Shown in pieces: positions 5,497 through 61,873 of a stretch of DNA of 64,000 nucleotides (within the stretch, counting starts at the first letter, position 1; each line of letters opens with the position of its first letter). This DNA is from Ostreococcus lucimarinus (Eukaryota): NCBI GenBank assembly GCA_000092065.1, contig CP000594.1; one strand, written 5' to 3'. The position numbers and the translations under genes are program-made. The notes beneath the pieces are model-generated. The model worked only from the letters and a program-made list of their open reading frames with translations, had not been told where the DNA came from and searched no databases.

Positions 5497-8400
5497 CTAA
5501 AAAATCAAATCAAGACCAAATACGGCGCTGATGACAAATAATACACCGAAGGCGAGCGCGACGGCGCTCGATCCACGAGCGATATAGCTCACAAACTTGG
5601 GATTATTCTTCTCCAACGCTGCCGTACCCGCACCAATGCAGTACGTGTACGTCCCCATGGCGATAATGGTTCCGATGAAGAACGTCGCCAAAAAAGAAAT
5701 CGCCTCGACGCGAGGGAGCGCCAGGGCAGGTAAAAGCAGAAACAATGAATCCGGTTGTAATCCATGGATGGTGCCAGTAATATACGTCCATGAGATGAAG
5801 CTGCTATCGCGCTTCGCGGGCACATCGCTCCCATGCGAGTGCGAATGCGAGTGTGAGTGTGAGTGTGAATGTGAGTGCGAGTGACCGCCCATGCTTTCCC
5901 AAAAGCCAATAGCGCCAATAATAATGAGCGTCAAACCGACGATTCCTTGTCCAAACTGACCGATAACTTCCAAGTTGAGCGGTAATTTATCCCTCAAAGC
6001 GATGAAAATACATCCAAATAAAATTTGACCCGTGTTATGCCCGAGCCCCCAAAGCGCGCCCATCAACGCGTTTTGCGCTCTGCTCGGTCCCACTGTCAGT
6101 GGCGTGAGTGCCGCTAAGTGGTCTGGCCCCGTGAGCGTGTGCAAGCAACCGGCTAATAGACCAGCCCATGCAGACTTAAACGCCGTGATTACGCTCATCC
6201 AGTGTGCGACGTGCAAATGTTTGACCCAAATGGCAATCGCTTCGCTGCACACCGAGTACGCTGCGCCCAAGCAACAAAACACGGTGAACGTCGTGAGGGC
6301 CACGGTAGTACTCTTGGACAACGGCTGTCGCCCGAACGTGACAAGCAAACGCACTGAGTTCATCGCCACCATGAGGGTCGCGCCTTCGTGCAGCAATACC
6401 GCCAACCATAGCGGAAACGCGCCGAAGAGAGCGGGAATAGCTGACCCCAAGATTGATACCACGGCGAGTGCGATGTTTTGTCGTAAAGTGCGTCGCGTGC
6501 GCTCGGCGATGGAAAACAGCTCTGGTAATTGAGAGATGCCTCCTTCGTCTTTAGTGAGCAACAGTACATCCGCCGCACTCGCGGCGGCATCGCTCGGCGT
6601 CGACGCGATGGCGACGCCGACATCCGCGGCGGCGAGCGCTGGGGCATCGTTGATACCATCGCCAACCATGGCCACGCGAGGATATTGCTTGGATTTCACG
6701 CGCTCTCGCATTGATTCAACCAGTGCAAGCTTTTGAGACGGAGTCAATCCGGCGTGTACGTCTTCCGGTTTCAACTTGATCTCCTCAGCCATGGCTATGG
6801 CGCTCGTCTTGTTGTCGCCCGTGAGCATGGCCAACTCCATACCCGTCGAGTCGCTCGCCACCTCCCACCATCTCCGTCGGCACTTGCCAGTACGCAGGGA
6901 CTCGATGGCATCGGGCGCCTGCAAATTAAGCGTATCACTAAACCTAAACAGCGCCGGGCTTTCGCCCTCAATCGCGAGCACAGAGAGCACTTCGCCCTCT
7001 TGCGCGATGACCTCGGCGGAGCATTCCGCAGCGCCAGTGTTACACAGCTCGAGCGCAAACTCGGAGCTACCGAATCGCGCACGCTTGCCGTCGATCGTGC
7101 CTTCCACACCACTCCCCGCGATGACTTTGTAATCCGTCACGGGACCGACGTCTGGCAAAATGATCCCCCGCGCCGCTTGCGTCACCGCGGCGGCAATCGG
7201 GTGGGACGAACCGCGTTCGAGGCTCAGCGCGTACGCCAGAGCCTTGACTGACGCGCTCGGAGCAGTGTCGTGTTGCGCACCGTCTTCAAATTGTGTGATA
7301 TTCGTGCAGCTCATTTGCCCCGTCGTGATGGTTCCCGTCTTATCGAGCGCCACCGCGCCGACTTCGGCCAAAGCGTCGAGAGTCAAGCCGCCTCGAATGA
7401 GCACACCTCGCCGAGCCATGGCCCCGATGGCCGCCACGTACACGAGCGGCGACATCAACAATGCACACGGCGCTGCGGAGGATAAAAACGCAAAGCTGCG
7501 ATACATGGCACCGCCGCGACCCAAAAATGGAATCCCGAGCACCATCGGCGCCGCGGCCATGGTAATAAAGGTGATGGCCAATATCGCCTTACTGTAGCGG
7601 TCTCCTATGCTATCGATCAATCGTGAGACTTTCGGACGACGCCGCTGCGCAGCCTCGGTGAGTCGCGCGATTCGCGCCGGTGTGCTCTCCTCGCTCGATC
7701 TCAAGCTCTTCACCACGAGCACGCCGTCGGTGTTCATCGCGCCGGCGGGAATCTCATCGCCGTATCTCTTCATCACCGGCAAAGCCTCACCGGTGATGTG
7801 TTGAATGCTCACTAACGCGCTGCCGTGGACAACCATACCATCCAACGGCACTTGCTGTCCAGCCTTGACGAAAATCATCGTCCCAACGTCGACGTCCGCC
7901 GCGGGCATCTCTCGGAGCGTCGTCAAATCCGGCGTCCCATCGGCGAGCAACTGCACGACGTCCGCCGTCGTGGGCACCGTGCCCCACAACGCCTTCAAAT
8001 CCCCCCGAGCGTGCAGCGTCAATCGATCCTCCACGAAGTGCGCCAGGGCGAAGAGCACCAAGAGCAGCGCGCCCTCCATCGCGCACCCCAAGAGCACGGT
8101 GCCGAACACGGCCAACGTCGTGAGCACGTGAATGTTCACGTTCCCCACCGCGAGCTCGTACGTCACGTCCACAAACTCGGGCGTCCCCGCCAACACGTAA
8201 ACCAGAATCGTGCACACCCGACTGACGTTCGCCGCCATCGTCGTCTCCACCAATCCGCCGCCGCCGACGTGCGTCGCCACGTGCGCCGCCCCCGCGACGA
8301 GAAACAGCGCCCACGACACCACCGCCACCGCCGCGTTCCCGCGCAGGAAATCCGCCACCGCGTGCAAACCAGTGGCGTTAAACATCGCATCCAGCGCCCT

Positions 8401-35185: not shown

Positions 35186-36387
35186 CTGCGTTCGAAAATA
35201 AGAAGCGAAAAAGTGAAAATGTCAGTCTTCGTCCGCTCGCTCGTTCATCGTCTCAGAGAGTATGGTCACAAAATATCCACATTGGGTATTCGGTAAAGTT
35301 TTTGGGTTAAAGGTTTTCATCTTCCTTGACGACGGCGCGATGAAGTCGAAGAAAAACGAACGTCGAGAACGACGACGACGACGACGGATGTAGCAGGGGT
35401 TCTAGAGGCCGTTAGTCATGGACAGACACGAAGCCCGCTTTACCCAAGCGTCACTCTACGGGCGTCTTCTGACGCGTCCGCGAATCTTTGAATCGCGGCG
35501 CGCACGTTCGAGATAAATCTCGCACCCAACATCGATCGAAAAGTAAAATGAATCCATTCAGCGGCGTGTCAGTGTTTCGTGAATCTTTTCACCGCGCCGA
35601 AACGCTCTAAAGGTGTCCTAAGATATATTGACGAAGTCATCACCCACACCGCCGAAACGGCGAGAAAAACCAAACAAACAAACCAACGATCGCGTCAGGA
35701 ATCAAAAATGATTTCGTTTCAAAGGAAGCCACTGAACACGGAGTCCTCAATTGAACTATGCCTTGATTCGAGCATCACCCGCGTCGTCGTCCGTCGTCTT
35801 CGTCGTCTTCGTCGTCGCTCGACGAGAGAAAAATCCACCCGCCGCTCGCGCGCGTTTCCAAGCCTCAGCTTAACGAGATTCACAAGTTTGATCGTCACCG
35901 AAATCAGATGGTACGGACAAGTGTGTCTCATCATCGGCTTCGCGCGCGCGACGGGCGGTCGCGCGTTTTCGTTTATCCGGCTAGCGTTCCGGCGTCGCGG
36001 GACCGGCCCGCGCGCCTCGCTCACGGTTCGCCGCGTCTCGCGCGTCGGCTCGCGCTCTCGCGCCCGTCCCGAGAGACGCGCGCTCGATCGCGTGCGTCAT
36101 CGCTCGACGGTGGTTTATCTCGGCGCGACCGAGCGCTGCGCGCGTCATGAGCGGGACGCGGCAGTGACTCTAGAGTGGATCGGCCTCTCGCGTTCTCGCG
36201 CGTCGCGTCGTCGTCGTCGTCGTCGTCGTCCTCGTCGCGTCGCGTCGCGTCGTCGCGCACCTCGTCGCGCGTCTCTCGCGCGCGCGTCTCGCGTTCGCGC
36301 GCGCTCGCGTCGCGCGGTGCGGTCGGGTCCGATTCGCCGCCGCCGCCGCACACCGCGACGCCGCGTCGACGCGCCGCGACGACGCGC

Positions 36388-37422: not shown

Positions 37423-37581
37423 TTAGATTGTGATATAACCAAACGACGACACGACGTTAAAGAACCGTAACAAACATCGCGAGTACATGTCGCGACCCGG
37501 GGCGACCACGACTTATGTTCCCTCGTATAGTTGCGTCTTCTCATAGTGATTTGAAGTCGTAAAGTATGAAAAAAGTTGGTG

Positions 37582-37679
37582 ATCAACAGGTCCGGAGTTC
37601 GATTCTCCGAGGCCCCTACGACAGACCCATACCTAGGGCACTCGGGGTCTTAGCTCAGTGGTAGAGCGGTTGACTGCAG
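37582..37679 (+). tRNA. circularly permuted tRNA-Cys(GCA) gene. The 3' half (positions 38-73) is at 37582..37617 and the 5' half (positions 1-37) is at 37644..37679, separated by a 26-nt linker
   Basis: 5' half GGGGTCTTAGCTCAGTGGTAGAGCGGTTGACTGCAG matches eukaryotic tRNA-Cys-GCA (GGGGGTATAGCTCAGTGGTAGAGCATTTGACTGCAG...) through anticodon-loop position 37, then diverges. The missing 3' half, A-TCAAC-AGGTC-CGGAG-TTCGATT-CTCCG-AGGCCCC-T, lies 27 nt upstream. It closes the anticodon stem (GTTGA/TCAAC), makes a T-arm (CGGAG/CTCCG, loop TTCGATT) and pairs 7/7 with the acceptor 5' strand (GGGGTCT/AGGCCCC, one G-U). A/B-box order is therefore reversed, as in permuted tRNA genes of red algae and prasinophytes. 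Confidence 0.7.
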
Positions 37680-37812
37680 TTAAAAACCATTTCTTTTTTG
37701 GACGTTTCTCGTCTCGACGCGTTTAGGGCACTCGGGGTCTTAGCTCAGTGGTAGAGCGGTTGACTGCAGTTAAAAACCATTTCTTTTTTGGACGTTTCTC
37801 GTCTCGACGCGT
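37634..37812 (+). repeat. 2 x 90-bp perfect tandem duplication containing the tRNA-Cys 5' half plus its T-tract. The second 5' half (37734..37769) has no adjacent 3' half
   Basis: tagggcactcggggtcttagctcagtggtagagcggttgactgcagttaaaaaccatttcttttttggacgtttctcgtctcgacgcgt occurs twice, head to tail. Confidence 0.85.
37694..37699 (+). terminator. RNA polymerase III terminator-like T6 tract 15 nt after the tRNA 5' half
   Basis: ttcttttttgg read directly. An oligo-T run is the Pol III termination signal. A second copy is at 37784..37789. Confidence 0.5.
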
Positions 37813-37909: not shown

Positions 37910-39706
37910 CTATTTCTTCGCGACGACTTGCGCGAAGCTCACTTTGACCTTCTTCGCCGCCGCGGTCTCCGTCCCCGCGTGTAAATCATCGTTGAGCGAG
38001 TCCAATTGCGTGATTGAATCGTCTTCTTGCATTTCTTTGCGTTTGCGAGCCGCCTTCGTATCGTCTCCCAGGGGCAAAGGTTTCTCTTCGGAGATTTTCT
38101 TTTCCTCGTCCTCCGCGCTCGCCGCTTTCTTCTCCTTCTCCGGCGCGTAGATGTCCTTGACGTAGCCGTCGATTTCTTCTTTCACGAAGCTCGGTAAATC
38201 CTTGCGCTTCAAATATTTGACGTTCGCCTGCATCCCGGGTACCCAGTTCGATTCCCCAGTCGCGCGATCCATCCACGACGTCACAGTCATTTGGAACTGC
38301 TCCACCGCGGGATTCAAGTTGAGCGAAACCTTCTCCTCCTTCTTCTTCAGGCTCGAAGGAAATAACCCCAAGAACAGCGTGACGTGCGAGTTTTCGTCCT
38401 TCTCCGGATCTTTGTACCTCGACGTGCCGGGATGCGCAAGCATTTGCCCTCCCGTGGCGTTTTCGATGCCTTGGATTAAAAGCTTGATTCGCGAGCCGAC
38501 CCAACCTTCCCACTTCTTAAAGTCATCTTCGTTCTTGGCCGAGATGGTAACCATCAAATAATGCTTGTATTTTTCTAAAAAGTTCAACGAACACCACAGC
38601 TGCTCCCACTTCGCGGTGTTTAAAAGAATCATCTTGGTCACTTCCTTGCCGCGCTTGAACTCGGCTTTGAGCACCTCGAGCGTGCTGACGCTCACGTTGA
38701 ACGTAGAGTTTTGCGCCGGATACGCCGGAGTTAAGATTTTCATCAACTGATATCGCTCTGCCTTGTTCACACGCTCGTCCCACACTCGCATCCCGGGTAA
38801 GCCTTCGTCGACGATGGGTACGAGCATCACCGGCGTCGTCCATTGCCACGCCGACCATAGTTGGAAAAAGCTGTACACGAGCATGGAAGGTGCGGCGTTG
38901 GGGTACAACTGACACACGCGCGCTACTAAAATCGCCAGGTTTACGCCACCGAAAAACCCGACGACGTTGCTATACACCCCGCGCCGCTGCGCCCACAGAC
39001 GCAACGTGCGAAGCGCCACTCGAAACGCGTCGTGGTTTGGCACGACGCGCAACAACTGATCCGCCACGCGACAACCATTCAGGGATTTCACCCCTGGGTC
39101 GTCCAAATTCATCATCACCGACGTCTGACACACGTCTAAGTCCTCTGGCACGTGCGTGTACGACGGTAAGCTCGTGTACGCCATATCTATTTCAAAACCT
39201 CTAAACACGAGTTTGATTTCTGGCACGATGGCGTCGCGCACGGGCACGATGCTCTCCGTTCCAGGGTGTTTCCGCATCACGTCATAAAACGACCCTTCGT
39301 AATCATTCTCATCCCATCCAAAGAAATCCTCCTCTCGGCTCAGATGTCTCGGCCCGAGGCACAGCGTATCGATATCCGCAGCCGGTCCGTGCACGCCCAA
39401 TCTATAGCTCCCAAACGTGTACAAGTTACACGACGGCCGCATATCCTCTGTGATCCCCTTTCGCTCGCTCGCCGCCAGCACCCAGTCTTGCAACAACGCG
39501 TTTATCTCCCCCAGCACCTCCTCGCGTCGCACGCACTCGTCCGCGTCTTCGTACACGTCCTCTTCCCGCAGTTTGTCATCGAGCGCCTTGCTCAACTTTT
39601 CGTCGAACGCCGTCGGCATCTCGTTCGACATCACGCGATTCAGCGCCTCCGCGGACGCCGACTGGGTCATGACCGACGGTGCGGAGGGCGTCTGCGCGCC
39701 GATCAT
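37910..39706 (-). CDS. canonical nuclear poly(A) polymerase (PAP, Pol-beta nucleotidyltransferase superfamily)
   Basis: Verified ATG at 39706. N-terminal region KLSKALDDKLREEDVYEDADECVRREEVLGEINALLQDWV. Catalytic segment FGSYRLGVHGPAADIDTLCLGPRH carries the metal-binding aspartates. Central and RNA-binding domains follow, then a Lys/Glu-rich C-terminus. Confidence 0.85.
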   Translation of the reverse strand: MIGAQTPSAPSVMTQSASAEALNRVMSNEMPTAFDEKLSKALDDKLREEDVYEDADECVRREEVLGEINALLQDWVLAASERKGITEDMRPSCNLYTFGSYRLGVHGPAADIDTLCLGPRHLSREEDFFGWDENDYEGSFYDVMRKHPGTESIVPVRDAIVPEIKLVFRGFEIDMAYTSLPSYTHVPEDLDVCQTSVMMNLDDPGVKSLNGCRVADQLLRVVPNHDAFRVALRTLRLWAQRRGVYSNVVGFFGGVNLAILVARVCQLYPNAAPSMLVYSFFQLWSAWQWTTPVMLVPIVDEGLPGMRVWDERVNKAERYQLMKILTPAYPAQNSTFNVSVSTLEVLKAEFKRGKEVTKMILLNTAKWEQLWCSLNFLEKYKHYLMVTISAKNEDDFKKWEGWVGSRIKLLIQGIENATGGQMLAHPGTSRYKDPEKDENSHVTLFLGLFPSSLKKKEEKVSLNLNPAVEQFQMTVTSWMDRATGESNWVPGMQANVKYLKRKDLPSFVKEEIDGYVKDIYAPEKEKKAASAEDEEKKISEEKPLPLGDDTKAARKRKEMQEDDSITQLDSLNDDLHAGTETAAAKKVKVSFAQVVAKK

Positions 39707-39833: not shown

Positions 39834-40724
39834 ATGCTCGGGACTCAATCTCGCGGTCACGCCGCGGGCGATCGCAAGAGCGCGCTCGTGCGCTACGGAC
39901 TCGTGGCGATCGCGTTGATGAATGTCGGTGTCGAATTGATTAAGATGTACTTTGGAACGAGCGCGCGCGGCGTGGAGGGGCGATACGGACGCGTGCGCGC
40001 GGAGGTGGCGTCGGTAAATCATCGCACGTCGTCGCTCGAGCGGACGATGCCGCGCGCGGATGCGCTGGCGCCCGAGGTGGAGGAGACGCGGGCCGAAACG
40101 GCGGCGGCGACGGCGCTGGCGCCCGAGGTGGAGGAGACGACGACGCCGGCGAACGTTCGGCGGCGAGAGAGAGAGTGCGGTTCGCCCGCCGTCGATGGCT
40201 ACGCGCACGTAAATTTGACGTGCTTGGCGATGAGTGCGACGGCGAGAGAATTCGCTCACGCGTCGGCGAGCGGGCGCGAGAAGTTGCGAGCGCACATCGA
40301 AGAACACGCGTCGTACGACGGCGTGGCGGTTCGTTGGGGAATCCATCACACGACGGAAACCGCGGAGGAGTGCGGTGAGCGGTGCAAAGAACACGTGGTA
40401 AAGCCGGACGGAATCGGTGCAGAAGTTTTGCCGTGCAACGTGTTCGTTTGGTGTCCCAAAGACGTCGGTGAGGGCGGTTGCTTTGAACCAGACGCGCACC
40501 AGCACTTCGCGGGCGACTGTTGGCTCAAGTTTAGCGAGACTCCGGAGAACGTCGAGGTGAACCAGCGAGGGGCCAACGACGCACCTGGGTTCGTGAATAA
40601 GGATGGAAAGACGTTCGCCGAGCGACACGCGAACGCGCCGAAATTAGTCCATTGGTCGAGCGGCGTGCTGCTTCCGGAATCGATGACAGCTTCGAGCACG
40701 CTCGGGCCGCGCGCAACGTGGTAG
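39834..40724 (+). CDS. hypothetical Cys-rich protein with an N-terminal hydrophobic anchor and an internal direct repeat (ALAPEVEET x2)
   Basis: Verified ATG. TM-like LVRYGLVAIALMNVGVELI. Cys-rich C-terminal half (GERCKEHV...LPCNVFVWCP...GGCFEPDAHQHFAGDCWLKF). No family recognised. Confidence 0.4.
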   Translation: MLGTQSRGHAAGDRKSALVRYGLVAIALMNVGVELIKMYFGTSARGVEGRYGRVRAEVASVNHRTSSLERTMPRADALAPEVEETRAETAAATALAPEVEETTTPANVRRRERECGSPAVDGYAHVNLTCLAMSATAREFAHASASGREKLRAHIEEHASYDGVAVRWGIHHTTETAEECGERCKEHVVKPDGIGAEVLPCNVFVWCPKDVGEGGCFEPDAHQHFAGDCWLKFSETPENVEVNQRGANDAPGFVNKDGKTFAERHANAPKLVHWSSGVLLPESMTASSTLGPRATW

Positions 40725-40768
40725 ACATGTAGAAAATTTGTTGTTATACATATACTTGTACACTTTGA

Positions 40769-41035
40769 TTACTGTACGCGGGCCATCCAGTTTGCAGGCG
40801 GTGACCAGGTTGTCACCGCCGCATGGTGATCTCTCTGGTCTTTAGGTGGGCAAGGCCCCATAGCCAAAAACTTCAAAGAACTACTATATTCCAGCGTGTC
40901 CAGTGCTTCCACATTGCGAAGCTTTTCGTCATCTCTTTTTTCCACCAACACGCAGAATTCATTTACTTCCACTGCCCAGGCCTGGCCGGTGTTTCTTTCT
41001 ATTTTGTACATGCCGGCTCTGCATTGGAGGCCCAT
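40769..41035 (-). CDS. second small tandem ORF (~87 aa) starting MGLQC, same strand and frame as the MGCCLS ORF and separated from it by an in-frame TAG
   Basis: The ATG encoding MGLQCRAG lies ~27 nt downstream of the upstream ORF's stop. Coding status uncertain. Confidence 0.25.
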   Translation of the reverse strand: MGLQCRAGMYKIERNTGQAWAVEVNEFCVLVEKRDDEKLRNVEALDTLEYSSSLKFLAMGPCPPKDQRDHHAAVTTWSPPANWMARVQ

Positions 41036-41062
41036 ATTGAAAAGCTTAGCCTCGTTGACTTG

Positions 41063-41389
41063 CTAACAAACTTTCTCAAATGCCTCTACCATTTTCGGCG
41101 GTGTGCAACCCACCGGGAAGCGTATAGCAGACCAGCATCGGATCGTTTCACAAATGGGCCACCCCCCCATGTCCTTCAGTGCGCCGTTCAAGATATCTAC
41201 AAGCTCGATCGCCACGGGTGAGTTTCTCGACCAATCTGGGTCACGGGCACGCATGTAGAGAGGCGACGGCGCATGGGTTTTCAGCAGGGGGGCGATGCGC
41301 CAGGACGTGAAGTCGTGTTTCCCCTGAACTTGAAGAACTGCGAGCAGGTCGGGGTGATAGAATGCTGGGGTGCTCAGGCAACAACCCAT
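41063..41389 (-). CDS. small ORF (108 aa) starting MGCCLS (N-myristoylation plus palmitoylation-type motif), inside a low-GC island
   Basis: Verified ATG at 41389. The N-terminus MGCCLS fits the MGxxxS/T myristoylation consensus with adjacent Cys. No family recognised. Local GC is ~50% against ~68% in flanks. Confidence 0.3.
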   Translation of the reverse strand: MGCCLSTPAFYHPDLLAVLQVQGKHDFTSWRIAPLLKTHAPSPLYMRARDPDWSRNSPVAIELVDILNGALKDMGGWPICETIRCWSAIRFPVGCTPPKMVEAFEKVC

Positions 41390-41595
41390 GATGCGCTGTG
41401 TTTCTTTTCTCGGCCACGCGCGCGTTTTCTTTTGTCCGCCTCTCTCTCGCGCGCGCGTCGTCGAGTGATGCTGGTGCCGCTCGTGACGGATTTAAGGGCG
41501 TGAACACCCGCGTGTAAAAGCAGACACTTTATATAGCACTTTGGGAGGTTAAAAGGTGTCCCAAAGTCTCATACATTGGCCTATACTTTGGCAAC

Positions 41596-41637
41596 ATCCC
41601 GCGCTTTGATTACTGTACAGTAATCAAAGCGCGGGAT
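41596..41637. repeat. perfect 42-bp palindrome (atcccgcgctttgattactgt / acagtaatcaaagcgcgggat)
   Basis: The reverse complement of the right 21 nt equals the left 21 nt exactly. Related motif copies are at 40761..40788 (ctttgattactgtacgcgggccatcc) and 61487..61516 (tacagtaatctatacccgggata). Confidence 0.9.
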
Positions 41638-41730
41638 ACCGTGGAATGGACTCGGAAAAACCTCTAGAAGTTCGGCGGCGCCATTCCGCGCGCGATCTCA
41701 GCGGGCGAGCGTGATCACCAACGTGGACCG

Positions 41731-44142: not shown

Positions 44143-44310
44143 ACGCCCCGCGGGGCGTGTGTGCCAGCCCGTAGGGTTTAGGGGATCGGACATATGGAGC
44201 CTCACTATTAAGACACACTGTCATATATATTAATGGATTTATGACAGTGTGTCTTAATAGTGAGGCTCCATATGTCCGACCGCGGGCACACATCCCCGCG
44301 GGGCGCCAGC
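44143..44310. repeat. MITE-like hairpin element. Perfect 38-bp inverted repeat (44187..44224 / 44241..44278) with a 16-nt AT loop, nested in a longer imperfect palindrome and flanked by ccccgcggggcg on both sides
   Basis: cggacatatggagcctcactattaagacacactgtcat / atgacagtgtgtcttaatagtgaggctccatatgtccg are exact reverse complements. Outer arms gccccgcggggcgtgtgtgccagcccg / cgcgggcacacatccccgcggggcg are imperfectly complementary. Confidence 0.55.
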
Positions 44311-44640
44311 AGGGTCAGGTCGCAATTTTGCGTTTTCCCGCTCAGCCTTCACTAGAAACGTGTCTAAACCGGCCACTTTTTAAATCTTGTTTTTTGCTAG
44401 GTTTTTACTGTCTCCGGGTCTCGGAGGAATCGCGTGGAGTGACCGGTTATGGGTTTAGTGGTTGGAGGTCCTGTGAGGAACTTTCTCTCCGTCACTTTTT
44501 TTCCATTTTTGAAAAAAAAAACGTCACATGTAAACTTTATAAATAAACCTATAACCTATAACCTATAACCTTGAAGGTTGAAATTTCTTAAGACCCGGGG
44601 TCCGCTGTTAAGGGGGGTCGGAACGCACAGAGAAATCGGG

Positions 44641-45180
44641 CTCGTCGTCCTGTGTATCAGCAGTCCTGTAGTAGGAAGTCATTTTTTGCTGTTTTGGGCA
44701 TCCCTTGCGTTCAGAGATTCCATTCTGAAGAAATCTTAAGCGAGGGCACCAAAAACTCAAGGTCTCAACGGTCGCACGCTTCAGACTAGTTACATCTTCT
44801 GTACCTCCAAGCAGCGAAGTGCTCCTGTGTGTCAGGTTTGTCTCACCAAACACCGAGATCTTCGAGAAGACGAACACGTTCCGCTGAGAGTTTGCACGTG
44901 CACCTGTCTTCCTTTGCCTGATTTGTGAGCCATCACCCCAGATTTGAATGTGGCGTATCTTATCGCGACACTCTCGCTTAAGATCTCTTCAGAATGGAAT
45001 CTCTGAACGCAAGCCGTGGATGTATTAAACTGTGAACGAGGCTAGTCATGGTTCGATTTTTTGGATTACAAGTGTAGGTCTACTTTTACGTTTCGTGGAC
45101 TCCGCTTGAGTCGGCCGATGTCACCACGTCAGGTGTTTCGAGTGCACTAGAGACGTGACCGCCGATACACAGGACGTCGA
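44641..45180. repeat. nested inverted-repeat structure: inner arms 44703..44746 vs 44966..45013 (44 bp, 1 mismatch), outer arms 44641..44660 vs 45161..45180
   Basis: Inner arm cccttgcgttcagagattccattctgaagaaatcttaagcgaggg pairs with its reverse complement ctctcgcttaagatctcttcagaatggaatctctgaacgcaagcc. Outer arm ctcgtcgtcctgtgtatcag pairs with gatacacaggacgtcgagc. Confidence 0.6.
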
Positions 45181-59705: not shown

Positions 59706-60024
59706 TTTTTGCCATTCGAACCATGAGAAACTACAACTCTATAATAACTTAAACTTAAAATTTTTTTAAGTTTAAGTACCTACACGTTAGTAATTTTGAA
59801 AATTTTTGTGACCCGTGACTCCCAAGCAAAAAGTCGCGCGTTGCTCCAGTGGCTGGGCACCCAAACATGGACCCAGACTCATGAATCATGAACCGTGAAT
59901 AGCCGAGTCCCAGGATTGACGAATCATGACTCGTATCAATCCGCCGCTCCCGAATGCGTGTGCCCCGTGTGACGAAATCGTCTCCGGGATCCGGAGGAAA
60001 AAACCTCCAGGAGGAAAACCTAAA

Positions 60025-60116
60025 GCGCGCGATCGACGTCTCCGAACGTCAAAGCCCGCCGCCTCCCTCCGCGCGCGATCGACGTCTCCGAACGTCAAAG
60101 CCCGCCGCCTCCCTCT
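60025..60116 (+). repeat. 2 x 46-bp tandem duplication (gcgcgatcgacgtctccgaacgtcaaagcccgccgcctccctc)
   Basis: Read directly. The copies differ at 1-2 positions. Confidence 0.8.
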
Positions 60117-60449
60117 GCGCGTGCTCGCGCGCCCGAGGAACGGTCAGCGTTTCCGCTCCGGCGTCCAGTAGGAGTTCCCGTGAAACGGACCAAAAGGAGG
60201 CTTTGTTGCGTGTTTGCCAGTTTTCGAGGACGTTGGAGTGAGAGGGCGCTTGCCGAGATGCCCTCCATCTTGATCTCGCGCGAAAACTGTTTCATGTTCC
60301 GCCGGGCCATCGTCGCCGATCGCGTCGCCGTGCATACTGTCCACGGGCTTAAAAAGGTCGCGGAGGTCAACGTTATCACTCATGGTCATTTTTTGACGTT
60401 TTGTTTCTGTCGCGCCCGACATCTTGCGTCGGAGTGGGTCAATGGCGAC

Positions 60450-60613
60450 GGCGGCGGCGGCCCACCTGTCGGTGTTTACGGAAAAGTTGCGGCTCGAAAT
60501 GAGGATGGCGTGGCCCATGTTTCTTATAGATACCTCATGAATACATATATTACAAGTTATAATGCTATTAATATATAATTGATTGGATGGGTGCCCAGCC
60601 CATCCGCGCGGGC
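60450..60613. repeat. copy B of the ~150-bp dispersed repeat, lying just 3' of the GIY-YIG ORF
   Basis: See copy A (59545..59705). Confidence 0.6.
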
Positions 60614-60644
60614 TGTATCTAGCTAGCTATGTATGTGCGACGGA

Positions 60645-61145
60645 TTAAAAACAGCACCAAATATTTTTTAAACAGCACCAACATTTTTTATAGTCGGTTT
60701 CATCGGTTTCCTCGATGGTCGAGCCTAGTTCCAGTTCACCGAGGAGCTGCTCGTCTTCTTCATGCAACCACGGTTCGTCCGCGCGTCCAGGCACAACGTT
60801 CGGACACTGGTTCACAAAATGGCCCAACTGACCACACCTGAAGCATCGATCACCCGCACCTCGCATCATGAGTTCGATAATCTCGAGGTGCGATCTCGGG
60901 AGAACGATCTGACTGAACGTCCCACCGCGTACGTTCTCAACGCCGTGTTCGGCCATGAGTCGTAACACGTGCTTGTCCTCGTCAAATGGTCCACATTCCT
61001 CGATGAACAGTCGACGGTACGGTTTGTATTTTTTCGTCCACGCGGCACCCATGCCGCGAAAATGGTCGTCGATCCTCGACCTGTTGTCGCACCGCCCCAC
61101 GTAGTATTTGCCCTGCGCACACGCGAGGCCGTATATCAGTGACAT
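60645..61145 (-). CDS. GIY-YIG nuclease-domain protein fused to a CCHC zinc knuckle and an acidic, Cys/Trp-rich tail (166 aa). Candidate selfish or mobile-element nuclease
   Basis: Verified ATG at 61145. N-terminus MSLIYGLACAQGKYYVGRCDNRSRIDDHFRG...AAWTKKYKPYRRLFIEE...HVLRLMAEHGVENVRGGTF carries the GIY...YYVG, conserved R, and catalytic E / N-V-R-G-G elements of GIY-YIG nucleases. CFRCGQLGHFVNQCP is a CX2CX4HX4C zinc knuckle. C-terminus is ETDETDYKKCWCCLKNIWCCF. The ORF lies in a ~50% GC repeat-flanked island. Confidence 0.55.
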   Translation of the reverse strand: MSLIYGLACAQGKYYVGRCDNRSRIDDHFRGMGAAWTKKYKPYRRLFIEECGPFDEDKHVLRLMAEHGVENVRGGTFSQIVLPRSHLEIIELMMRGAGDRCFRCGQLGHFVNQCPNVVPGRADEPWLHEEDEQLLGELELGSTIEETDETDYKKCWCCLKNIWCCF

Positions 61146-61269
61146 GATCCATGTGGTCTAGTGCCCCCGGGCCGTCGTCGCGCGCGCCGCGGTGTGCGGG
61201 GGCACGCAGACCAGCGGCGGCGGTCGAGTCGCAGATGCGTCCATCACTGACGTCGAACGAGAATCGGGA

Positions 61270-61440
61270 TCACCCGTGGGTCCGTTGGCGCCCCGCGGGT
61301 GTGTGTGTCAGCCCTCAGGATAACCAGCCGCGCGAGGATCAAATCAAACATGGACCCGAACTCGCGGGTGTCGACACGGTCGGTCGGACATATGGAGCCT
61401 CACAATTTGGCCGTATGACCACATATATTAATTTATGTAT
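61270..61440. repeat. partial (left-half) copy of the 44.2-kb hairpin element: cgccccgcggg + gtgtgtg + cagccc ... cggacatatggagcctcac... + atatattaat
   Basis: ggtcggacatatggagcctcacaatttggccgtatgaccacatatattaatttatg resembles 44187..44240 (cggacatatggagcctcactattaagacacactgtcatatatattaatggattt). The upstream gcgccccgcgggtgtgtgtgtcagccc resembles 44145..44170. Confidence 0.5.
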
Positions 61441-61873
61441 GGCTATCATCCCGTGCTATCCCGGGGGTAAATTACAGTACAGTAATCTATACCCGGGATA
61501 GCGCGGGCTGAATAGAATAAATCCAGTAATATACGTTGTTTTTTGGTGTTGCACATTTTTTTAGTGTTACACCGCGCGTGCAAGCGACACTTCGTCCCGC
61601 GGTGGCGGAAGTTCTGTCATCTATAGAAAGCGATCTTCACCATTGATCAGTTCGATTAGCTCTGTTCTTTGAGCGTACTCATTATTCTTGGATCACTTAA
61701 ATAATCTTAAGCGGTGACAGAAAAAACAAAATTTTGGTGATTTTGGTGATAATCCGACCGACCGAACAACACGCGCGCTCGAACGAACGTCGAGTGTTAC
61801 GCCATCATTCGTCCGCGCTCTTGCACGTGAACTCGAGGCACCGACGAAAGAAAAATCACCACATAATCGCCCG

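Follow-up and report, generated by a model that had tools for sequence, protein, structure and literature searches.

A Perfect 42-bp Palindrome Beside an Interrupted Gene in Ostreococcus lucimarinus Probably Marks the Loss of a ~9-kb Segment

Organization of the Locus

We analyzed a 64,000-nucleotide (nt) stretch of DNA (the window) from Ostreococcus lucimarinus CCE9901, the reference strain of this marine green picoalga, which has a compact eukaryotic nuclear genome. The subject is the segment at 40740-41700, between a gene for a 296-amino-acid (aa) Cys-rich/PAN-like protein and a DOMON-like gene. It holds a small gene of a family termed MGC here, two units of a dispersed repeat, and a perfect palindrome that probably marks the junction of a ~9-kb deletion (Table 1). 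The MGC gene and the DOMON-like gene are transcribed divergently. Wild alleles of the locus (L001-L014 and L129-L138) were drawn from marine metagenome contigs. The proteins of the window occur on hundreds of such contigs, which possibly come from several closely related species.

The GC content (guanine plus cytosine) of 40740-41700 is 52.5%, against a window mean of 56.2% and 64% in the gene to the left. A preliminary description of this DNA had called the segment a low-GC island of ~50%. The DOMON-like gene is equally low (51.3%), and the low GC continues for ~18 kb rightward. The pattern is a step down, and there is no island.

Table 1. Features of the window discussed in the text.
Feature	Position	Strand	Description
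Poly(A) polymerase gene	37910-39706		exact match to XP_001421431
Left C-unit remnant	40750-40776	+	terminus CTTTGATTACTG at 40763-40774, then TA at 40775-40776
MGC-family gene	40769-41389	-	206 aa when intact; TAG at 41063-41065; N-terminus MGCCLST
Right C-unit, ~105 nt	41510-41615	+	ends …ATCCCGCGCTTTGATTACTG; direct repeat of the left unit
Perfect palindrome, 42 bp	41596-41637		end of the right C-unit, central TA (41616-41617), and 20-nt inverted stub
Junction of reference-specific indel	41616-41617		relatives hold 8.7-9.4 kb here
Inverted stub CAGTAATCAAAGCGCGGGAT, 20 nt	41618-41637	+	adjoins the DOMON-like gene in all relatives
DOMON-like gene, 689 aa	41731-43800	+	exact match to XP_001421254; right flank of the junction
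A/A palindrome	44144-44310		outer halves of two A arms (TCGGACATATGGAGCCTCAC…)
Third family member	61384-61539		imperfect long palindrome with core AATTACAGTACAGTAATC, between a divergent GIY-YIG ORF and a 643-aa ORF

An Interrupted Gene of the MGC Family

Two open reading frames (ORFs) are present on the minus strand of the segment, one of 108 aa beginning with MGCCLS (41063-41389) and one of 88 aa beginning with MGLQC (40769-41035). They had been described as two tandem MG-x-x-C small ORFs. Both exist on the same strand, but they are one frame split by a TAG codon. In environmental alleles the two are joined in frame, and the TAG of the reference is CAG in relatives. The intact ORF is found in 15 of the 17 distinct environmental contigs that span the gene. 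ORFs of 206-219 aa are listed for L002-L006, L008, L014, and L129-L138 (206 aa in L003-L005; 212-213 aa, with an in-frame duplication of 18 nt, in L002, L006, L014, and L129-L137; 219 aa in L138). The L001 allele carries a frameshift. The reference allele is a nonsense-interrupted copy of one conserved gene, pseudogenized or truncated. Neither reference half-ORF was on record when both were looked up by exact match among public assemblies, and there is thus no independent copy of this allele.

The two half-ORFs do not stand for two small proteins. In an alignment of 21 homologues (down to 38% identity), MGLQC lies inside an invariant internal block, AKLF[ND]MGLQCRA, of a single protein of 200-250 aa, and the second "MG start" is thus an internal methionine. 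The proteins in this alignment start with MG[C/G/S/A]xxS. All of them have G2, S6 is conserved at 90% or more, and most carry Cys3; some sequences read MGG, MGS, or MGA instead. The motif MGCxxS is the classical signal for myristoylation plus palmitoylation in the G-alpha-i/o subunits and the Src-family kinases. The MGC protein is probably anchored to a membrane by lipids at its MGCCLST N-terminus, as judged from the sequence. Of the two N-acylation starts proposed earlier, MGCCLS is therefore credible as a prediction, but MGLQC is internal. The likeness to the dual-acylated proteins covers the Met-Gly-Cys start, Ser6, and the invariant Gly2. The rest of the MGC protein is unrelated to them, the acylation is predicted, and some homologues lack Cys3.

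The homologues fall into 114 clusters (90% clustering; down to 36% identity), all metagenomic and none named. A profile search of 1.84 billion representatives gave only 41 clusters, thus indicating a narrow, lineage-restricted family. The protein and its homologues match no Pfam family, and a profile search of the PDB returned no match to the protein. The structural model of the MGC protein is of moderate quality (predicted local distance difference test score, pLDDT, 67) and gave a weak fold match to GOLGA7/GCP16-Erf4, the accessory subunit of the DHHC9/Erf2 palmitoyltransferase. Membership of the Erf4/GOLGA7 family was rejected, with no significant sequence or profile match in Pfam or the PDB. 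The N-terminal region of the MGC protein (residues ~10-85, FYHPDLL…DPxWxRNSP) also matches 4-7 times per protein in a few long proteins (P0193, 1071 aa; P0200, 1692 aa; P0197; P0202), a pattern that suggests a repeatable domain.

Conspecific alleles differ mostly at non-synonymous positions. The ratio of non-synonymous to synonymous rates (dN/dS) is 1.6-9.6, calculated on only 10-18 differences. Together with the two null alleles, values above 1 suggest relaxed or diversifying selection on the gene in O. lucimarinus.

Repeat Units Around the Gene

In every conspecific relative, the MGC gene lies between two direct copies of a ~85-nt unit (109 nt in L053), the C-unit. The left and right copies are 87-90% identical in these relatives, and the terminus …ATCCCGCGCTTTGATTACTG is followed by TA. 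TTGTACA, which resembles a nearby CTGTAC, stands in place of 64 nt of the left unit in the reference. The replacement is private to the reference, and because of it the left unit shows only a ~20-nt motif in the window. The lesion resembles a deletion accompanied by a short templated insert, as error-prone break repair might leave.

The left motif had been taken for a collapsed version of the palindrome. It is instead a single repeat terminus (…CTTTGATTACTG) plus TA, and the full ~85-nt repeat precedes it in relatives. This terminus is fused to the MGC coding sequence (…GCC CGC/G TA CAG TAA), of which it makes up the last two codons and the stop. The GCGGG that follows the motif is coding sequence of the MGC gene. 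Homologues in other species continue past this point as …RCYDFPTPSNETTNYV or …RLTPPYNETTNHV, and they have no C-unit on either side. The C-units are thus lineage-specific additions, and the ancestral C-terminus of the MGC protein was truncated by one of them. Synteny was sought at the homologue locus in related species, and none was found.

The right unit lies upstream of the gene and includes a TATA-like sequence, CTATATAAAG (minus strand, ~41528-41537), read from the sequence ~140 nt before the ATG. It is plausible as the TATA box of the MGC gene. Other copies of the C family are present on L020, L024, L025, L041, and L047. Two independent assemblies (L053 and L030) also have the whole repeat-gene-repeat cassette, 96.7% identical, in an unrelated context. 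Searches of the L053 ORFs against PHROGs and the PDB found nothing. A 952-aa ORF beside this cassette copy was considered as a helicase; it is a repeat-containing membrane protein.

The Palindrome Lies at the Junction of a Probable Deletion

The inverted-repeat check bore out the palindrome at 41596-41637, with arms of 21 nt and no spacer; chance alone would give ~1e-8 such palindromes in 64 kb. The 15-mer CTTTGATTACTGTAC occurs at 40763, 41604, and 41615 (minus strand), three times against 0.04 expected, with a half-copy at 40763-40776. The related motifs were said to mark a structural boundary. They have this 15-mer in common, and the synteny with conspecific contigs does break at the center of the palindrome.

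In ~20 environmental contigs, the halves of the palindrome are 8.7-9.4 kb apart, with a giant DUF285 gene between them. L001-L006 align with the window as far as 41617. L007-L014 align with it from 41610 onward, but this point lies 8.7-9.4 kb deeper in those contigs. In the wild alleles, the terminus of the right C-unit is followed by TA, a 130-nt element like the MITEs (miniature inverted-repeat transposable elements), a 420-nt repeat, and the giant DUF285 gene on the minus strand. Then come an A-type repeat arm ending in AAATTACTG, TA, a 35-nt mini-element, TA, and the stub CAGTAATCAAAGCGCGGGAT. The MITE-like element has terminal inverted repeats of 27 nt (GTATGTATTACTTTCCACGCCCTAAT; L002 7887-8012) and is present in all wild alleles. 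The 420-nt repeat is an 88% identical direct copy of a sequence downstream of the DOMON-like gene (44558-44975; L008 982-1391); the copy to the right of the MGC segment is gone from the reference with the 9-kb segment. The mini-element reads CAGTAAT-TTTAGGGTTTAGGGTTTTGGG-TTTACTG and contains telomere-type repeats. This TTTAGGGTTTAGGGTTTTGGG lies in the core at about 9843-9900 of L007-L014 (e.g., L008), and its flanks may alternatively be described as a 14-nt duplication of TACTGTACAGTAAT. A start of the form GTATGTATT…, resembling the 130-nt element, was also observed in an insertion in the tRNA region of L004.

The reference lacks everything from the first TA to the last TA, and an 8-bp direct repeat, TTACTGTA, is present at both breakpoints. 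The difference between the alleles runs from TA to TA, with 8 bp of microhomology. Among strains, the ~9-kb segment is 97-100% identical except for the number of tandem repeats in DUF285, and we discarded the possibility that it is a hypervariable region. Contig L009 retains the segment, as do more distant strains, even though its identity to the window is 99.975% across the 12 kb rightward of the junction. The reference allele is thus derived, most simply by a recent deletion.

The junction of the reference was found in none of 38 metagenome stretches that contain the 18-nt core GATTACTGTACAGTAATC, and it is likewise missing from the 10 contigs whose 296-aa gene is exactly the reference allele. 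In L138, one of these 10, a third and unrelated sequence begins at the same TA (5848-6138). After the terminus of the right C-unit and TA, this contig continues with CAGTAACCCTCTAG… and then a coding-like acidic repeat that has no match in the fetched sequences.

The preliminary description had the MGC segment delivered by an insertion and called for a presence/absence comparison with relatives. In all conspecific contigs read, the segment is in the same place with the same boundaries, as ordinary DNA would be, within this species at least. What sets the reference strain apart is the reverse of an insertion: ~9 kb is missing from it exactly at the center of the palindrome.

A Dispersed Repeat Family with a Palindromic Core

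A scan of metagenome contigs for GATTACTGTACAGTAATC gave ~27 distinct Ostreococcus-like loci with a GC fraction of 0.44-0.57. Outward from the center, every arm reads (TA)CAGTAATC, a short spacer, GCGCGGGAT, and then one of several arm families. The arms abut end to end and so form the palindromic core GATTACTG-TA-CAGTAATC, whose perfect symmetry usually extends over 18-22 nt only. TA precedes 42 of the 44 distinct termini listed. A arms are ~170 nt long with two or three CCCTAAA units, B arms are 70-300 nt long with a variably truncated distal end, and C arms are the unit that flanks the MGC gene in the window. Some arms are plain host DNA. The two arms of one core often belong to different families, and spacer variants are common to A and B. 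Solo termini next to TA and unrelated DNA, as well as stubs of 10 nt, are also seen. Only the mini-elements of 27-35 nt (CAGTAAT…ATTACTG, with TA on both sides) have both ends; the arms are one-ended. CCCTAAA/TTTAGGG units are present within A arms and at the outer ends of C-units at many loci. The TTTAGGG motifs also resemble the telo-box promoter motifs of plants, and telomere healing may be the source of these tracts.

At three loci, the point where the alleles part is exactly the core. At one of them, locus D (L018, L035, L045, L054, and L055), a host flank with genes for an FMN-dependent dehydrogenase and a ribulose-phosphate 3-epimerase is 99% identical among contigs, and the DNA across the core differs. 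L035 has a DUF285 gene there, L054 an MGC homologue (41% identity), and L045 and L055 other DNA.

Two more members are in the window. A third related copy had been placed near 61487; it is found near 61480 as a larger imperfect palindrome with the same core. Its arms of 61 nt (61418-61539) are 72% complementary around TTACAGTACAGTAA, and it includes an ATCCCG.GC block. The allele of this element in L050/L051 has 70 extra nt of TACTGTA/TACAGTA half-sites exactly at the center. In the same strain, an unrelated sequence of 1,088 nt (L051 7730-8818) is present in place of the GIY-YIG region (59862-61467), and this presence/absence polymorphism of the GIY-YIG ORF ends at the palindromic element. 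A Penelope-like/GIY-YIG retroelement was considered here and rejected: the GIY-YIG ORF (60645-61145, minus strand, 166 aa) has a zinc knuckle and no reverse transcriptase. The other member, the A/A palindrome, has arms of 43 nt at 44186-44279 that are 98% complementary. The core and part of GCGCGGGAT are gone from its center, and the telomere-like TAGGGTTTAGGGG is present on the left arm only.

The cores lie mostly between divergent ORFs. About 27 arms point toward the 5' end of an ORF and ~5 toward the 3' end, a crude count based on stop-to-stop frames. Genes for secreted or surface proteins are frequent neighbors (DUF285, aspartyl protease, F5/8 type C, and CotH with lamin-tail). In Pfam searches, none of the 16 ORFs adjacent to cores encodes a transposase, an integrase, or a reverse transcriptase; they are of host type or unknown. 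A prasinovirus or other viral origin of the core was rejected: the 73 matches to the 14-nt core in IMG/VR are close to the number expected by chance (a rough estimate), and in none of them does the core have the CGCGGGAT repeat context. No description of the family was found in the literature, as covered by open-access full texts.

On two GC-richer contigs (L023 7083-7100 and L038 8060-8122), the same core is seen within unrelated perfect palindromes. For example, AAGTGAAC-ATTACTGTACAGTAAT-GTTCACTT stands beside GAAGGTGG-ATTACTGTACAGTAAT-CCACCTTC, and the symmetry reaches into unique sequence.

Comparison with Known Systems

The family is similar to the Tc1/mariner MITEs (Stowaway-like). In both, the termini begin with 5'-CAGT… and are flanked by TA, short derivatives with two termini and TA exist, the copies are intergenic and promoter-proximal, and subfamilies share just the terminal ~25-35 nt. 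The TA duplication expected of a Tc1/mariner target site is found at 42 of the 44 termini and on both sides of the mini-elements. The mini-elements look like internally deleted copies of a Tc1/mariner-like element, by analogy. However, none of the 16 core-adjacent ORFs matches a DD(E/D) transposase in Pfam, so that an autonomous copy was not found among them. Most arms are one-ended with a variable distal end, they face each other across a common TA without bounding a discrete element, and the palindromy sometimes extends beyond the terminus. A DDE endonuclease gene has been reported in Ostreococcus (PMC5082852), but it could not be linked to the repeat family.

A second likeness is to rearrangements that break palindromes at their centers, such as the human palindromic AT-rich repeats (PATRRs) of t(11;22) and foldback elements. 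The breakpoints at 41616/41617, at locus D, at the 61.4-kb locus, and in L138 with its third partner are all at palindrome centers. The chimeric arms, the deleted center of 44186-44279, and the length variation built of core half-sites at the center in L051 are also alike, and breakage at centers would explain both the chimeric arms and the center-specific variation. The cores differ from PATRRs in that 18-22 nt are perfect, not hundreds of AT-rich bases. In addition, PATRR exchange has long palindromes as both partners, whereas the left site of the 9-kb deletion is a half-site in relatives and not palindromic. Cruciforms at these cores are hypothetical.

Integron cassettes offer an analogy only. 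Shared features are the stacking of genes, each followed by a conserved terminus resembling a recombination site, at a single chromosomal position, and their precise loss between such termini. The differences are that the genome here is eukaryotic and nuclear, that the search found no integrase, that the genes have promoters of their own, and that only a few loci are involved. The repeat family is best filed with the MITE/foldback kind, with a palindromic junction that is unusually conserved.

Origin of the Palindrome

Our preferred interpretation, to which we assign a probability of about 0.72, is that the reference carries one broken MGC gene and a dispersed repeat family, and that the palindrome is the junction of a ~9-kb deletion. 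The DUF285 segment would have been lost recently, most likely by microhomology-mediated joining or replication slippage between the direct repeats TTACTGTA. The loss from TA to TA would have brought the terminus of the right C-unit and the inverted stub together as a perfect 42-bp palindrome. The palindrome would then be a scar and no functional device, and the kind of event that it records is ordinary. The family appears to act like non-autonomous, TA-targeting inverted-repeat elements or like center-breaking palindromes; either behavior would make the cores recurrent breakpoints.

Several observations weigh against this interpretation. The junction is known from the reference assembly alone, and an artefact of cloning or assembly, or a mutation in culture, is conceivable. 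In relatives, the left breakpoint is a half-site (…GATTACTG TA TCCG…), and the deleted segment does not have two proper element ends, so that excision of the transposase type is unsupported. Exchange between cores, whether site-specific or homologous, predicts the 8-bp microhomology equally well. Since none of the 16 ORFs encodes a transposase, an integrase, or a reverse transcriptase, the mobility of the family is inferred from its anatomy alone. Metagenome contigs may be chimeric at repeats, although the exact core in common is only 18-22 nt. The ORF lists were made with the bacterial code, ignoring introns, and are a guide only. Finally, with dN/dS above 1, the MGC gene may or may not still be functional in O. 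lucimarinus.

We compared this deletion with other explanations. The palindrome could be an ancestral empty target, with the ~9-kb segment, like the 35-nt mini-element, inserted at the TA in its center through a site-specific recombinase or a transposase that targets TA; the reference would never have had the segment or would have lost it by the reverse reaction, and the cores would dock cassettes with MGC or DUF285 genes. The TA on both sides of the segment, its right end, which is a proper terminus (…AAATTACTG followed by TA), and the TA-flanked mini-elements in the centers of cores are in line with this, as are the alternative partners at locus D and the at least three right-hand partners that start at the same TA of the present locus. 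However, the left end of the segment (TA followed by TCCGTATG…) is no terminus, and neither a recombinase nor a transposase is among the 16 core-adjacent ORFs. Strains 97-99.98% identical to the reference hold the segment, and its absence is most parsimoniously derived. Part of the allelic diversity may also reflect different species or chimeric contigs. We regard an empty target as unlikely. A related proposal is that the cores (GATTACTG-TA-CAGTAATC) are active exchange points, where cassettes that bear promoters and carry MGC or giant DUF285 genes enter, leave, and replace one another with base precision, among strains and loci, through a putative TA-specific transposase or recombinase. It would amount to a eukaryotic, integron-like means of varying the cell-surface repertoire that viruses see. 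It draws on few loci and on metagenome contigs, and we consider it quite unlikely. A further reading, distinctly unlikely, has a dimeric factor bind the cores as cis-regulatory sites in bidirectional promoters, with the 42-bp symmetry selected as the shared promoter element of the MGC and DOMON-like genes. The excess of arms toward 5' ends, the TATA-like box of the C-unit at a plausible distance from the ATG, the telo-box-like AAACCCTAA motifs in the arms, and the conserved core next to variable arms would suit such a role. But 9 kb separates the two genes in every wild relative and the palindrome is not shared, and it thus cannot be required. Moreover, the left C-unit is at the 3' end of its gene, and a bias toward promoters is equally typical of the insertion of DNA transposons.

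The deletion also has to be set against two readings that take the segment or its junction quite differently. The preliminary description saw an inserted low-GC island, bounded by the palindrome and a collapsed copy, that delivered two small, N-acylated, membrane-tethered proteins. In its favor, MGCCLS is a good and conserved start for dual acylation, the repeat-gene-repeat cassette also exists in the unrelated context of L053 and L030, and homologues in other species are not syntenic. It is very unlikely, because the two ORFs are one frame in relatives with MGLQC as an invariant internal motif, the boundaries are identical in all conspecific contigs, the GC is low for 18 kb to the right, and the bounding repeats are direct rather than a palindrome and its collapsed form. 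Least credible is a junction made by the assembly or the clone library, with 9 kb of repeat-rich DNA lost. The absence of this junction from ~20 environmental contigs and from the 38 core-containing stretches, and the long tandem repeats within the missing segment, would agree with such an artefact. However, perfect palindromes are unstable in Escherichia coli clones, and one is an unlikely product of an artefact. The breakpoints are base-precise at an 8-bp repeat, and within 900 nt the reference has two further private lesions, the nonsense codon and the 64-nt replacement. We judge it highly improbable.

Implications

The O. lucimarinus reference is atypical at this locus. It is without a ~9-kb segment with a giant DUF285 gene that is present in every wild contig examined, and it holds a broken, unannotated copy of the conserved MGC gene, a member of a lineage-restricted family of proteins predicted to be lipid-anchored. 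In these smallest free-living eukaryotes, a repeat family with a strictly conserved palindromic core, located mostly in divergent promoter regions, marks the exact breakpoints of gene content between strains. Such breakpoints beside genes of surface proteins are candidates for rapid structural variation linked to virus resistance in the group.

Other Observations in the Window

The Rfam scan found no known RNA family at the palindromes. Its sole match in the window lies elsewhere, a C/D-box small nucleolar RNA, snoR117 (35860-35939, minus strand), which scores 43.4 bits, barely above the gathering score of 42 bits. A permuted gene resembling transfer RNA (tRNA)-Cys(GCA) was seen by eye at 37575-37800, with its 3' half (T-arm, ~37587-37625) upstream of its 5' half (~37644-37679). 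A tandem duplicate of the 5' half and its T-run follows at ~37723-37800. ARAGORN reported no tRNA anywhere in the window. In the L004/L005 allele, an insertion with (CCCTAAA)3 lies within the 3' half. The 296-aa Cys-rich/PAN-like gene contains a perfect direct repeat of 27 nt (copies 51 nt apart, 40062-40139; coding repeat ALAPEVEET), and the length of its product varies among strains from 283 to 301 aa.

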